From NCBI GenBank assembly GCA_036273515.1, contig DASUHM010000044.1, positions 384-64,383 of the forward strand: DNA of 64,000 nucleotides. Reading direction: 5' to 3'. Below are positions 1,319 through 8,353 of the stretch, one piece after another. The notes under the pieces are model-generated. The model was not told where the DNA came from. It did no database searches and was given only the letters and a program-made list of their open reading frames with translations. The position numbers and the translations under genes were made by a program. Numbering within the stretch: position 1 is the stretch's first letter; each line of letters opens with the position of its first letter. The DNA comes from Gaiellales bacterium. Its GTDB lineage: Bacteria; Actinomycetota; Thermoleophilia; Gaiellales; JAICJC01.

Positions 1319-1362
1319 TGTACCGCCATCCTGGTACACTTCTGTACCACTATCCCGGTACA
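1319..1362. repeat. 44-bp four-hexamer palindromic array, copy B (TGTACC-N8-GGTACA-N4-TGTACC-N8-GGTACA)
   Basis: Read directly: TGTACC GCCATCCT GGTACA CTTC TGTACC ACTATCCC GGTACA. It ends 2 nt before the ATPase stop codon (1365-1367) and lies 142 nt upstream of the MetE-like start (1176). Confidence 0.9.
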
Positions 1363-1364
1363 GC

Positions 1365-2561
1365 CTAGTCTTCGATTGCCGGCAGCTGACGCTCGGCGAA
1401 CGGCGAGGATCGCCGCAGCCACTCGCGGAACAACGGATCGACGATGAACCACTCGCCCTCCCGTTTGTCGACGAGGCCGCGGCCGACTAGCCGATCCAGG
1501 GAGGGGGCGACTCTGGAGTGGCTCGAGAATCCGTACAACTGGTAGTTGCCACGGCCGGACACGTGCCGCCCGCCGCGATCAGCAACGAGGTGCAGCGCTC
1601 GCAACTCGTTGACCTCGCCGTCGTCGCCGTTGGCGAGCAGGTTCAGCACCGAGGAGAACTCTGACCGCTCGATCGACTGGACGAGCTTATTGTGGGCATC
1701 AATCGCCGTATCCAGCGTGATTCGATGTCCCGCGGCGGTGTTCACCCAACACTCCCACGCGATCTGCTGTGTGCTGCGGGGATGGGCACCCGTCGCGTTC
1801 AAGATGTACTCCAGTGCGTCCTCCTCCGCCGGCTTGCCGGTCGCCTGAAACTGGTAGTCCAGGTATTCCAGAAACTCCGTGCGGCCAATGGCGGGGAGGT
1901 GCATCTCGGCTGCTTCACCGAAGATGGGCTGGTCGGAGTTCTCGAACATCATCTTCAAGGCGTTGCGGATCGAGCCGGTGAACAGCAGCGACACGTGATT
2001 CGCTCCAGAGCTCATCAAGGACGACCTGATCAGCGCCAACGGCTCACCGGGGCAGTGCCGGAGCCGCTGGAACTCATCGAACACGACGACGAGATGAGGA
2101 GACAGCGCTCGCAGAGCCATGAGCTGCGCGTGCAGCATCTCGGCATCCTGATCACGTGCCCCACCGGCTTTCTTGACCGACCCCTTGATCACCTTGATGT
2201 CGAATCCGATCTCCTTCTCCATGGCCTCAATCTGCCGCTGCGCTGCGCGGCGCAACGCCTTCTGCGGATGGCCGACCATCGCGTCGTGCACGCAGCCAAT
2301 GAATGCCGGGATGCTCAGAACCCGCTGAAGGTTGACCTTGACGACGTCGAAGGGTGGTGCGTCTGGCCCGTGACGCTTGCCCAGTTCGAGGCCGAGCTGG
2401 TTGGTGAACGTCGTCTTGCCGGTGTCTCGCGGGCCGAATAACGCCACATTTGTTTGGCCCTTGAGCGTCAGGGCGACCTGGTTCGCGAACCCCTCCATGC
2501 CGATGATCTTGGTCGGATCATCGATAGGCCGATCCCAGATGAAAGGGTTCAGCGCGGTCAT
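1365..2561 (-). CDS. AAA+ ATPase of the 'archaeal ATPase' type with a DUF234-like winged-helix C-terminus
   Basis: Walker A 'GPRDTGKTT', Walker B 'LVVVFDEFQRL', sensor-like 'LLFTGS'. The C-terminal 'LVGRGLVDKREGEWFIVDPLFREWL' is typical of the DUF234 tail of this family. Start chosen at ATG 2561 ('MTALNPFIWDRPIDDP'). The track's GTG at 2627 and the ATG at 2606 both lie inside the repeat array. No clear Shine-Dalgarno sequence was seen. Confidence 0.8.
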   Translation of the reverse strand: MTALNPFIWDRPIDDPTKIIGMEGFANQVALTLKGQTNVALFGPRDTGKTTFTNQLGLELGKRHGPDAPPFDVVKVNLQRVLSIPAFIGCVHDAMVGHPQKALRRAAQRQIEAMEKEIGFDIKVIKGSVKKAGGARDQDAEMLHAQLMALRALSPHLVVVFDEFQRLRHCPGEPLALIRSSLMSSGANHVSLLFTGSIRNALKMMFENSDQPIFGEAAEMHLPAIGRTEFLEYLDYQFQATGKPAEEDALEYILNATGAHPRSTQQIAWECWVNTAAGHRITLDTAIDAHNKLVQSIERSEFSSVLNLLANGDDGEVNELRALHLVADRGGRHVSGRGNYQLYGFSSHSRVAPSLDRLVGRGLVDKREGEWFIVDPLFREWLRRSSPFAERQLPAIED

Positions 2562-2582
2562 GCGCACAATGGTATCGCGGAT

Positions 2583-2626
2583 TGTACCAGCAAGGTGGTA
2601 CATTTTTGTACCGGGATCTCGGTACA
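2583..2626. repeat. 44-bp four-hexamer palindromic array, copy A (TGTACC-N8-GGTACA-N4-TGTACC-N8-GGTACA)
   Basis: Read directly: TGTACC AGCAAGGT GGTACA TTTT TGTACC GGGATCTC GGTACA. It lies 21 nt upstream of the ATPase ATG at 2561, so it overlaps the expected promoter. Confidence 0.9.
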
Positions 2627-2789: not shown

Positions 2790-3740
2790 ATGCGTTTTCT
2801 GCTCGCGGCCGCCGTGCTCTGCGCGTGGGTAACGGCTGCTCCAGCCGGCTCGCTGTCCGCTGCGGCCGGCGTATCAGGCGCGACCGCCGCTGCCGCGTCC
2901 GATCCGGTGGTCGCCACCGCCGGCGATATCGCCTGCGACCCCGCGAGCTCCAAGTTCAACGGCGGTCAGGGGACGAGCAGCGCCTGTCGCGAGCTCGCGA
3001 CGTCCAACCTGATCGGCGCCGATGCGAGCATTGGCGCCGTGCTCCCGCTGGGCGACAACCAGTACGCGTGCGGCGGCTATCAGGCCTACCTCAGGTCATA
3101 CGCTCCGTCGTGGGGCCGCTTCCTTGCGATGACCCACCCGGTCGCCGGAAATCACGAGTACCAGACCAGCGGCGGCACTGACTGCTCGTCGGGGGCGGCG
3201 GGCTACTTCAGGTACTTCGGCGCCGCGGCCGGCGACTCGCGCGGCGACTATGCGTGGAACCTCGGCACATGGCACCTGATCGCGCTGAACGGCAACTGCG
3301 GCAAGGTCGGCGGCTGCGGCTCCGGTTCACCCCAGGGGAATTTCCTGAAGCAGAACCTCGGCTCCGCCACGTGCACCCTGGCCTACTGGCACCAGCCCTA
3401 CTACAACGGCACCAGCACGCCCGTCAGCAGCTACAAGTACTTCTGGCAGACCCTCTACAACGCCGGGGCGGACATCGTCCTGGCCGGACACCTGCACACC
3501 TACGGGCGGTTCGCGCCGCAGGACGCCGCCGGCCACGTGGACTCGAGCCGGGGAATCCGGCAGTTCATCGTCGGCACCGGCGGCGAGGACCTGTTCTCGC
3601 TCAACGGCAGCCACAACGTCGAGAAGACGACCAAGGCGTTCGGCATCCTCAAGCTCACGCTGCACGCCACCGGCTACGACTGGCGATTCGTGAACGCGAG
3701 CGGAGGCACCGTCGACTCCGGATCGGCGCCGTGCCACTGA
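2790..3740 (+). CDS. secreted calcineurin-like metallophosphoesterase
   Basis: Signal peptide 'MRFLLAAAVLCAWVTAAPAGS'. Metallophosphoesterase motifs 'GDIACD', 'GDNQY', 'GNHEY', 'GHLHTY'. AAAGGTGG lies 8 nt upstream of ATG 2790; the track start at GTG 2778 is less likely. Confidence 0.8.
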   Translation: MRFLLAAAVLCAWVTAAPAGSLSAAAGVSGATAAAASDPVVATAGDIACDPASSKFNGGQGTSSACRELATSNLIGADASIGAVLPLGDNQYACGGYQAYLRSYAPSWGRFLAMTHPVAGNHEYQTSGGTDCSSGAAGYFRYFGAAAGDSRGDYAWNLGTWHLIALNGNCGKVGGCGSGSPQGNFLKQNLGSATCTLAYWHQPYYNGTSTPVSSYKYFWQTLYNAGADIVLAGHLHTYGRFAPQDAAGHVDSSRGIRQFIVGTGGEDLFSLNGSHNVEKTTKAFGILKLTLHATGYDWRFVNASGGTVDSGSAPCH

Positions 3741-6435: not shown

Positions 6436-6900
6436 TCACCGGACCGCGACCACCTCGCAACCCCGGCGGGCGAATCCGGCGCCATGATCAGGGTCATGAA
6501 CGACCACATGGCATGGACATACCTCGTGCCGGCACGGCGGCCGGATCAGCCGCGGAGCCGGCGGGAGAGTGAGCGAGAACTGTTCCTCCGGCTCGCCCGT
6601 GAGCAGCGGCGAAAAAATCGCCGGACCTGGCGCGACCGCGTGCGCCTGGAAGAGGGGCGGCAGCGGAGCCGCTGAGATCGCGGCGTACGGAACGTGGTCA
6701 GCCTCCGGATGACCGGTGTTGATCGCCCGCGCTGAACGCCCCTTCGAGCCAGTCGGCATCGCCCAGGCGGGCAGCGAGCTGGACCAGGCGATCAACGAAT
6801 GCGATCCTTGACGAGGGGGAGGCGCTCGACGGCTCCACGGTGTTGAGGGCGGCGAACATCCAGGTGCCGCCGGCCGCCGAAGACCTCGACCCAGTGGTCC
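6436..6900 (-). pseudogene. glutathione S-transferase C-terminal-domain remnant (frameshifted, N-terminal domain missing)
   Basis: My own minus-strand translation gives 'TWMFAALNTVEPS...FVDRLVQLAARLGDADWLEGAFSAGD' in one frame, which is GST_C-like. A stop follows, and weaker similarity continues in the frame of ORF 6436..6927 ('PLFQAHA'). No thioredoxin-like N-domain is present, because the hydrolase gene abuts at 6906. Confidence 0.4.
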
Positions 6901-6905
6901 CGGTG

Positions 6906-7685
6906 CTACGCCGTCTCGCCGAGCCACTCGCGCAGCAGCGCGACGAGCTCGTCGAACGCGTCCCAGTAGACCATGTGGCCGGCCTCGAGACCGTGCACCG
7001 TCAGCCGGTCGCCGAGGTCGCGCCTGAGCGATTCGACCAGACCCTCACCCACCATGCCGTCATGGAGCGCCGGGACGAGCAGGAGCTCGCCCGCGAAGCC
7101 GGCCAGGGAGACCGGCGGCTCTGCCATCTCGCTCCAGGCCGCCACCACCGTCGACCGGCAGAACCGCAGCCGCCAGCGGCCGTCCTGGCCCTGCTCCAGC
7201 CCCTCCTCGAGATCGGCGTCCACGAACGGCAGCGCCTGGGCGGGGCGTCCCTCGCGCCGCGCGCGCACCGCCTCGTCACGCGTCGCCCAGCCCTCGTCGG
7301 CGCGCGTCTCCTCTCCCGCCTCGAACATCTCGTGCCCGTCCTGGTCGATCGCCGGGTCGAGCAGCACCACCCGCCGCACGCGCTCGGGCGCCGCCGCGGC
7401 GAGATGTGTGGCCAGCACCCCGCCGAAGCTGTGGCCGACGACATCGACCCGCTCGACGCCCTCTGCGTCCAGCGTCTCCAACAGGTCGGCCACATGCCGC
7501 CGGGCCGTCCAGGGCGCGTCCCAGGTCGACCGGCCGTGCCCGCGGAGATCCACTGCCAGCCAGCGGCGGTGCGGCAGGCCCCGTTCCGCCAGCGGGCGAT
7601 ACCGGCCCCCGTGACCGGTGACACCGTGCACCGCGAGCAGCGGTTCGCCGTCGAGCGAGCCGAACCGATGCAGGTTCAGGACCAC
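6906..7685 (-). CDS. alpha/beta-fold hydrolase
   Basis: 'HGVTGHG' oxyanion region and nucleophile elbow 'GHSFGG'. 259 aa, GTG start. Confidence 0.8.
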   Translation of the reverse strand: MVLNLHRFGSLDGEPLLAVHGVTGHGGRYRPLAERGLPHRRWLAVDLRGHGRSTWDAPWTARRHVADLLETLDAEGVERVDVVGHSFGGVLATHLAAAAPERVRRVVLLDPAIDQDGHEMFEAGEETRADEGWATRDEAVRARREGRPAQALPFVDADLEEGLEQGQDGRWRLRFCRSTVVAAWSEMAEPPVSLAGFAGELLLVPALHDGMVGEGLVESLRRDLGDRLTVHGLEAGHMVYWDAFDELVALLREWLGETA

Positions 7686-7708
7686 GATGGCAGCACCCTA
7701 CTCCGCCG

Positions 7709-8353
7709 TCAGTACACGAACGCGGCCAGGACGCCGGCGAGCGCGGCAGCGATCACGAGGAGCACGCCTGCGCCGAGCACGCCCTTCGCGGGACGCCGTT
7801 CGCGGATCGCGCCGGCGAGCGTGAACACCGCCCCGGCGGTGGCCGCGAGCAGGAGGCCTCGCGATGCGGTCTGCGCCTTGCGGCCATACCGATCCGCCTC
7901 GTCCATGAGCGCGTTCTGGCGGGCGACCATCGTGTCGGTGCGGACCTTGAGCGCAGCCTGCTCTGCCCCGAGCGCCTGGGCTCCCGGAGGTCCCGGCGCA
8001 GTGCCGGTCATCGTCTGCCAGAGGCGGCCGAGCCGCTTCGCTGCGTGCTCGTCCGCGACGGACAGGGCAGCCAACCCGGACGACGACCCGCCCGCGGTGA
8101 GGAGATCCATGCCTGATGCGTTCGTCATGAGCTGGGTCTGCTGGCGCAGGAGCATGCTCTTCATGTCGAGCCGGCCGCCCGCGGCCGTGGTATCGCGAAA
8201 GATCGCGACCGCGAGGCGTGTGCCTTCCGCCGCCGCGCGGTCCGAGTGCCGGTTCGCGTTCAGCTGGACGAAGCCCAGCAGTGCCGCAAGGACGGCGACC
8301 ACGCCGCCGAGCACGGCCAGCGGCCCGCGCAGGGACGACGCTTCCTCCGTCAC
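7709..8353 (-). CDS. membrane protein of unknown function (N-terminal TM, helical ectodomain, C-terminal TM hairpin)
   Basis: TM segments 'LAVLGGVVAVLAALLGFV', 'LLLAATAGAVFTLAGAI' and 'VLGAGVLLVIAAALAGVLAAFV'. The GTG start overlaps the upstream stop (GTGA at 8350-8353). Confidence 0.6.
   Translation of the reverse strand: MTEEASSLRGPLAVLGGVVAVLAALLGFVQLNANRHSDRAAAEGTRLAVAIFRDTTAAGGRLDMKSMLLRQQTQLMTNASGMDLLTAGGSSSGLAALSVADEHAAKRLGRLWQTMTGTAPGPPGAQALGAEQAALKVRTDTMVARQNALMDEADRYGRKAQTASRGLLLAATAGAVFTLAGAIRERRPAKGVLGAGVLLVIAAALAGVLAAFVY

Follow-up and report, generated by a model that had tools for sequence, protein, structure and literature searches.

What binds the two arrays of palindromes that enclose an AAA+ ATPase gene in a Gaiellales bacterium, and what are they for? 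The gene and its arrays lie within 64,000 nucleotides of contig DASUHM010000044.1 (assembly GCA_036273515.1, positions 384 to 64,383), and this whole analyzed stretch is referred to below as the window. An initial annotation had placed three readings side by side: operators bound by the ATPase's own winged helix, giving autoregulation together with control of the adjacent MetE-like gene; terminal inverted repeats (TIRs) of a small non-autonomous cassette; and tandem hairpins of the repetitive extragenic palindrome/bacterial interspersed mosaic element (REP/BIME) type. Autoregulation through the gene's own operators is the best supported of these claims, because the motif is found only by this gene, overlaps a -10 box, and co-varies in its half-sites with the protein subfamily. 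Thus, we propose that the arrays are probably the self-operators of an Orc1/Cdc6-shaped, ATPase_2-like AAA+ winged-helix protein, with autorepression at the 5′ array and a second operator array at the 3′ end of the gene.

Palindrome Arrays on Both Sides of the ATPase Gene

The ATPase gene occupies positions 1365..2561 on the minus strand and encodes 398 amino acids. Its upstream (5′) array, the proposed operator (2583..2626), and its downstream (3′) array (1319..1362), neither of which is assigned a strand, have an identical layout of two 20-bp units set 4 bp apart, and together they contain four exact TGTACC-N8-GGTACA units, at 1319-1338, 1343-1362, 2583-2602, and 2607-2626. Four perfect units, with the same 8/4/8 spacing in both arrays, had been recognized in the initial annotation, and the exact matches bear this out; the distances given there are also correct, with 21 nt between the 5′ array and the ATG (2561), 2 nt between the stop codon (1365-1367) and the 3′ array, which begins 3 nt past the stop, and 142 nt from the latter array to the start (1176) of the MetE-like gene (28-1176). 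Each 20-bp unit is itself palindromic, the consensus form being the perfect palindrome TGTACCGCCTAGGCGGTACA, and the 1.3-kb unit from array to array is filled by the single ATPase open reading frame (ORF). The pattern TGTACC-N8-GGTACA did not occur in any of 100 dinucleotide-preserving shuffles of the window, in agreement with the earlier judgment that the arrays are not due to chance. Within the 64 kb, no further unit was found at up to two mismatches, and a scan at three mismatches gave three more sites, which is the chance level. The scattered lone hexamers reported earlier are likewise present: 8 of the 19 GGTACA/TGTACC hexamers of the window fall inside the two arrays and 11 outside them, against ~6.6 expected. 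The recurring 'MYxxGGT / PGT..Y' peptides described from the ORF track are real but trivial, since they belong to spurious ORFs with a terminus inside a repeat.

We gathered 89 orthologous loci, and the counts given here rest on 69 distinct loci with enough flanking sequence, which belong to Gaiellales and Solirubrobacteraceae and have an ATPase protein identity of 71-91%. At least one upstream unit is present in 67 of the 69 loci (two units in 42 and four in one), and 59 loci have at least one downstream unit; orthologous ATPase loci devoid of the motif, which the initial annotation regarded as an argument against a dedicated system, are therefore not the pattern observed. All units identified at up to two mismatches sit either directly upstream of the gene or directly after its stop codon, and none was found in the 378 kb of remaining flank. 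Counted from the start codon, the upstream units begin at approximately -28 to -33 and -52 to -57; the downstream units are located at +1 to +55 past the stop codon, with the array beginning 1-7 nt after it in most loci, and the period of the units within arrays is 24 bp in this main group. The genomic contexts differ between loci (50 upstream flanks fall into 38 clusters), and thus the module is the only constant. In the locus L006 (9891-9982), and likewise in L007, four phased units with the 24-bp period are located upstream of the gene, three of them with the right half-site GGTCCA, suggesting that the array can expand and that its half-sites vary asymmetrically.

Overlap of the 5′ Array with the Predicted Promoter

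For promoter statistics, 73 distinct proximal units were compared with 119 units from 3′ arrays. GG-TACAAT is the sequence of the final half-site of the proximal unit in most loci. A TAnnnT hexamer formed from the half-site is found in 63 of the 73 proximal units (TACAAT in 38) but in 30 of the 119 3′ units, and it is preceded by TG, as in an extended -10 element, in 33 proximal units versus six 3′ units. The start codon follows 6-8 nt after the -10-like hexamer in 55 of the 73 proximal units, a geometry that would correspond to a leaderless mRNA.

In the window, the 5′ units begin at positions -65 and -41 from the ATG, and their array overlaps the predicted core promoter. The -10-like hexamer TACCAT (2569..2574, minus strand), as read from the sequence, lies 7 nt upstream of the ATG and would also imply a leaderless mRNA, and a second -10 candidate, TACAAT (2581-2586, minus strand), overlaps the last half-site as in most orthologs. 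The window belongs to a clade, together with L001 and L010, in which the array is located ~12 bp further upstream than in other loci and, immediately past the array, a separate TACCAT or TACGCT hexamer precedes the ATG by 6-7 nt. Judged by these positions, a protein bound to the 5′ array would occlude the core promoter in both geometries.

Co-variation of Half-Sites and the Recognition Helix

A search of 1.8 billion cluster representatives yielded full-length relatives of the ATPase at 22-56% identity. The loci of seven of them (36-56% identity) contain phased palindrome arrays in the same place, with other half-sites and a period of ~23 bp, and the main TGTACC motif is absent from all seven. 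P0121 (56% identity, L090) is associated with TGTATC-N7-GATACA, with two units upstream and two directly after the stop codon. The corresponding palindromes are ACTTGC-N7-GCAAGT for P0127 (46%, L092), TGTTAG-N7-CTAACA for P0123 (45%, L091), ATCCCC-N7-GGGGAT for P0128 (45%, L097), TGTCCA-N7-TGGACA for P0133 (41%, L094), and ATGGAA-N7-TTCCAT, in two units with a 4-bp gap, for P0135 (38%, L093), and the locus of P0140 (36%, L098) has the composite array TGTGTCA-N6-GACCCA-N4-TGGGTC-N6-TGACACA. On the protein side, the predicted recognition helix opens with the segment YGFSSHSRVA (residues 343-352), which does not vary within the main group and differs in every distant subfamily, with the scaffold residues unchanged. 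Thus, the half-sites and the recognition helix vary together.

Domain Architecture and Fold of the ATPase

The ATPase contains a Walker A motif (GPRDTGKTT), a Walker B motif (VVVFDEF), a helical lid, and a C-terminal winged helix at residues ~314-373, whose predicted recognition helix begins at YGFSSHSR (343-350). Its P-loop AAA+ core is evident from the residues G48, K49, D162, and E163, which are invariant in 67 relatives. Family models at the sequence level gave weak sub-threshold Pfam matches to AAA_22, AAA_14, and AAA_16; the protein did not match PF01637 (ATPase_2) at E <= 0.01, DUF234 (PF03008), or any NCBIfam family, and a PDB sequence search returned P-loop noise only. PF01637 is matched by 13 of 20 distant relatives (22-56% identity; best E = 4.8e-12), and DUF234 is absent from the top 25 families shown for these 20 proteins. 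A defense-system identity was rejected, since PADLOC gave only weak generic ATPase matches.

The AlphaFold2 model used here was obtained from a diverse alignment (predicted local distance difference test, pLDDT, 93; predicted template modeling score, pTM, 0.89) and replaced a poor model from a shallow alignment (pLDDT 66). It comprises an AAA+ core, a helical lid, and a winged helix formed by helices 314-329, 337-342, and 348-360 followed by a beta hairpin at 364-373. The two top-ranking Foldseek matches are 2QEN and 2FNA (E = 2.6e-11 and 2.7e-9, probability 1.00, template modeling (TM) score 0.63-0.71 over 395-402 columns), followed by Orc1/Cdc6 proteins and origin recognition complex (ORC) subunits, including 2v1u, 1fnn, 1w5s, and 2qby (E = 1e-7 to 1e-6, TM 0.43-0.56), of which 2v1u and 2qby are DNA-bound Orc1 structures. 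The initial description of an archaeal-type AAA+ ATPase with a DUF234-like C-terminal winged helix therefore holds at the level of the fold; however, the Pfam DUF234 model was never matched.

In total, 969 homologs are detectable, and the top 120 listed, with 74-87% identity, originate from Solirubrobacteraceae and related metagenome-assembled genomes. The exact 398-aa product is absent from the gene collection, and the neighboring MetE-like protein is present there at 100% identity, in a Gaiellales metagenome-assembled genome; the public annotation probably begins at a different codon, such as the GTG at position 2627 inside the 5′ array, which would give 420 aa.

A Model of Negative Autoregulation

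The ATPase is the obvious binder of the arrays, since it is the only ORF in the module, and we infer that it binds them, that its binding represses transcription, and that the two arrays communicate. According to this model, the winged helix would recognize the 20-bp palindromes, which recur every 24 bp as neighboring units on either side of the gene; this would make the 1.3-kb stretch a self-contained regulatory module. Since the 5′ array covers the -10 box, occupation of this array should shut off the putative leaderless promoter, resulting in negative autoregulation. The 3′ array has the same half-site as the 5′ array, also in the TGTATC subfamily, which implies the same binder. By analogy with the OR and OL operators of lambda CI, the most likely function of the 3′ array is cooperation with the 5′ array by way of protein oligomerization, which would loop out the gene; the 3′ array may also act as a roadblock or insulator for transcription entering or leaving the ATPase gene. 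A secondary role of the 3′ array as an RNA 3′ hairpin would be a compatible addition to this model.

The control of the MetE-like gene, which formed part of the operator reading in the initial annotation, is not supported. Among the loci compared, this gene adjoins the ATPase gene only in the window, the gene that follows the ATPase has the same orientation in 25 loci and converges on it in another 25 (by a crude gene calling based on GC content at third codon positions, GC3), and the 3′ array is present whatever gene lies downstream. On the basis of the neighbor orientation and the single occurrence of the MetE-like gene, an operator for the downstream gene was rejected.

Several observations weigh against the autoregulation model. 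The 3′ array is missing in 10 of the 69 loci and was not found at orthologs with 45% identity or less, suggesting that it is an accessory, derived feature, and the proposals for its role are divided between loop partner and roadblock. The window protein scores below every Pfam gathering threshold, and each distant subfamily is known from one or two loci. Finally, the motif scan covered ~64 kb from the genome of the window and ~0.5 Mb of flanking sequence at related loci, which leaves room for further sites elsewhere in the genome.

Alternative Explanations for the Arrays

An unlikely alternative is that the module is a minimal bacterial Orc1/Cdc6-like nucleoprotein device rather than mainly a gene regulator, in which ATP-dependent assembly of the protein on both arrays, and bridging between them, would produce a chromosomal landmark or a relocatable, self-insulating single-gene unit. 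Such a landmark would serve replication, segregation, or compaction, with the arrays possibly being the only genomic sites of the ATPase, whereas a self-insulating unit could relocate and still work in any context. It is similarly rather improbable that the arrays serve first of all for nucleation or loading of the ATPase in a non-regulatory, origin-, centromere-, or landmark-like job, with autoregulation as a side effect, following the models of origin recognition box (ORB) elements beside orc1/cdc6, DnaA boxes flanking dnaA, and parC1/parC2 flanking par2. Apart from the fold, the phased arrays with a 23-24-bp period and up to four units, the presence of sites on both sides of the gene, and the very strong conservation of the ATPase (72-91% identity across two orders) are consistent with nucleation sites; however, an AT-rich unwinding region is lacking, with the gene itself occupying the interval from array to array at a GC content of 0.60-0.66, the upstream array keeps a constant distance to the -10 box and the start codon, as a promoter operator needs, and the more distant subfamilies have the promoter array only.

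We consider it very unlikely that the 1.3-kb unit is a small mobile cassette with the arrays as TIRs or recombination sites. This explanation draws on the comparison of the window with L001 (91% protein identity), where 85% DNA identity extends exactly from one outer array end to the other and not beyond, and on the finding that the window, L001, and L010 have no neighboring genes in common and that most loci are in unique contexts. However, the module encodes no transposase or recombinase, and a target-site-duplicating element was rejected because the distribution of such duplications over 63 loci equals that of a shuffled control. The initial annotation described the arrays as inverted repeats facing each other on account of their nnnATCCn spacers, but these spacers are confined to close relatives such as L001 and do not reflect a general property: across 44 loci, the spacers of 5′ and 3′ arrays share 8.3 of 20 positions in inverted and 8.0 of 20 in direct orientation, as compared with 7.6-7.8 between unrelated loci, and TIR-like inverted spacers were rejected accordingly. 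Neither the window nor any of the loci yielded a second copy of the ATPase gene, giving no sign of multiple copies, and several pairs with 85-93% identity have remained syntenic, their neighboring genes having diverged equally. The array is also absent from 2.9 million viral contigs, which contain only two relatives of the ATPase (22-26% identity), and on this ground a phage or mobile origin was rejected.

A cassette had been expected to be present or absent as a block at the MetE-like locus of relatives, and the unit is indeed absent from L100, which encodes a 91% identical MetE-like ortholog without an adjacent ATPase gene; however, the difference does not begin at the array boundary. Homology of L100 to the window ends 14 nt before the start of the MetE-like gene, at approximately position 1190 of the window, that is, 129 nt from the array (1319). 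In place of the ATPase module, L100 has a divergent FAD_binding_3 gene 63 nt upstream of the MetE-like gene (the regions compared being 5938-6000 of L100 and 1177-1318 of the window), and its genes further upstream (ribonucleotide reductase small subunit, ACT, and TPR) are not found in the 64-kb window. Since the breakpoint is off the array and the whole upstream region is different, the comparison points to a general rearrangement rather than a clean excision, and rearrangement is evidently common in these genomes. Base composition does not favor a cassette either. The GC content of positions 1365-2700, which include the ATPase gene and the upstream intergenic region, is 0.57-0.66 versus 0.70-0.75 in the neighboring 8 kb, and across 53 loci the mean GC content of the ATPase gene is 3.8 points lower than that of its flanks, with GC3 nonetheless high (0.77-0.96). 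The GC3 values agree with those of the host (0.82-0.95), so that the composition is uninformative as a sign of foreign origin, and the lower GC content is probably due to amino-acid constraint.

Highly improbable, too, is the interpretation of the palindromes as nucleic-acid hairpins, either a REP/BIME-like family or stem-loops that terminate or stabilize an RNA, rather than as protein sites. The transcript of the 3′ array folds strongly (-30.9 kcal/mol, z = -5.5), the array directly follows the stop codon in most loci, and terminator scoring classified one unit as terminator-like. Nevertheless, stem deviations are almost always one-sided and break the pairing, such that the stem sequence is conserved rather than co-varying; at pair 3-18, for instance, 26-27 changes are one-sided and at most one is double, in a set of units chosen at up to three mismatches, which biases against double changes. 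Such one-sided, non-compensatory changes argue for protein sites on duplex DNA rather than hairpins. The REP/BIME reading of the initial annotation is refuted by this pattern and by the lack of dispersed copies, as neither the 378 kb of flank nor the rest of the window contains a unit. In addition, the identical sequence sits in the promoter, where it would be untranscribed if the mRNA is leaderless, and no U-tract follows the 3′ array in the window. A known RNA family was rejected, since no match to an Rfam family was obtained; the 64-kb window as a whole contains no tRNA genes and no Rfam families at the gathering score. Least probable of all is an unlinked transcription factor with the ATPase gene as its main target: a small regulon could look single-gene in a sample of ~0.5 Mb, and binding by the ATPase is itself deduced, but the half-site co-varies with the ATPase subfamily and its recognition helix, and the module occurs in unrelated contexts and taxa, including a low-GC organism (L091), so that such a factor would need repeated co-evolution.

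Genomic Neighborhoods of Related ATPases

Distant orthologs of the ATPase are surrounded by genes of toxin-antitoxin and defense-like types (L090, 2088-2907 and 6030-7200; L091, 4417-5150; L094, 1-1925), namely a helix-turn-helix (HTH) gene of the HTH_3 family with an NTP_transf_8/DUF6036-like gene, a Fic gene, a PIN gene with a FitA-like ribbon-helix-helix gene, and an AAA_13/SMC_N ATPase gene, which hints that the distant subfamilies live in variable or defense islands. The L092 locus, which has no 3′ palindrome array, contains a tRNA-Pro(GGG) gene (3232-3306) on the opposite strand, 24 nt downstream of P0127. In the Solirubrobacteraceae genome represented by L008, a paralog with 26% identity and the same layout of ATPase and winged helix (6858-8105) is located at a distance of 3 kb to the ortholog. 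TGTACC units are missing there; the palindrome GTGATA-N3-TATCAC, situated at the 5′ end of the paralog as annotated, is possibly its own operator if translation truly starts at the later ATG.

Comparison with Known Regulatory Systems

The repressor gene of phage lambda, cI, lies between the OR and OL operator arrays, and CI bound to them forms a long-range loop and autoregulates PRM. The module described here resembles this system in that a regulator gene is placed between two arrays of adjacent palindromic operators with ~23-24-bp spacing, the promoter-proximal array overlapping the regulator's own promoter, and by analogy one would expect cooperation of adjacent dimers and of distant arrays. 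The proteins are unrelated, since CI combines an HTH with an S24 peptidase-like domain, in contrast to the AAA+ and winged-helix domains found here. Furthermore, each array here consists of two units, a divergent lytic promoter is lacking, assembly may be under the control of ATP, and looping is only proposed. In partition loci such as par2 of pB171, the site arrays parC1 and parC2 are located on both sides of the operon. As proposed here, the genes there are enclosed by arrays of sites for the DNA-binding protein they encode, with the upstream one also serving as an autoregulated promoter; however, par2 is a plasmid two-protein system with short direct repeats, whereas we describe one chromosomal gene with palindromic units.

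The order of AAA+ domain, lid, and C-terminal winged helix, as well as repeated dyad-containing sites beside the protein's own gene, are shared with Orc1/Cdc6 and its ORB elements. In contrast to the latter, there is no AT-rich unwinding element between the repeats, the sites overlap a promoter, no family match exists at the sequence level, and the host belongs to the Bacteria. In full-length fold, the window protein is matched best by archaeal ATPases of the ATPase_2 (PF01637)/DUF234 type, such as PAB2304 (2QEN) and SSO1545 (2FNA), although it matches neither the PF01637 nor the DUF234 model; in the literature searched, we found no cognate DNA site described for these ATPases and no relevant report on the palindrome motif. 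An actinobacterial transcription regulator with an SSO1545-like ATPase domain and a DNA-binding domain is the mycobacterial IniR, a signal-transduction ATPase of 818 aa that activates iniBAC (PMC5760070). It differs from the window protein in having a MalT-like sensor domain and a LuxR-type HTH and in activating another operon, and no bracketing palindromes are described for it (PMC5760070).

Implications for the ATPase Family

The pair of cis-element and protein is real and strongly conserved among these soil actinobacteria, and it represents a variant of a known regulatory design in an uncharacterized protein family. Structures of ATPase_2/COG1672 proteins have been available since 2006-2008, and no described function or DNA target for them was found in the literature searched. 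A related branch now gains a candidate DNA site and a likely activity, which would be sequence-specific binding at its own gene, in a host group, Thermoleophilia, with almost no experimental genetics. The co-variation of half-sites and recognition helices provides natural orthogonal protein/operator pairs for specificity swaps or synthetic biology. The combination of a promoter array with a 3′ array resembles an independent, ATP-coupled re-invention of the lambda OR/OL design.

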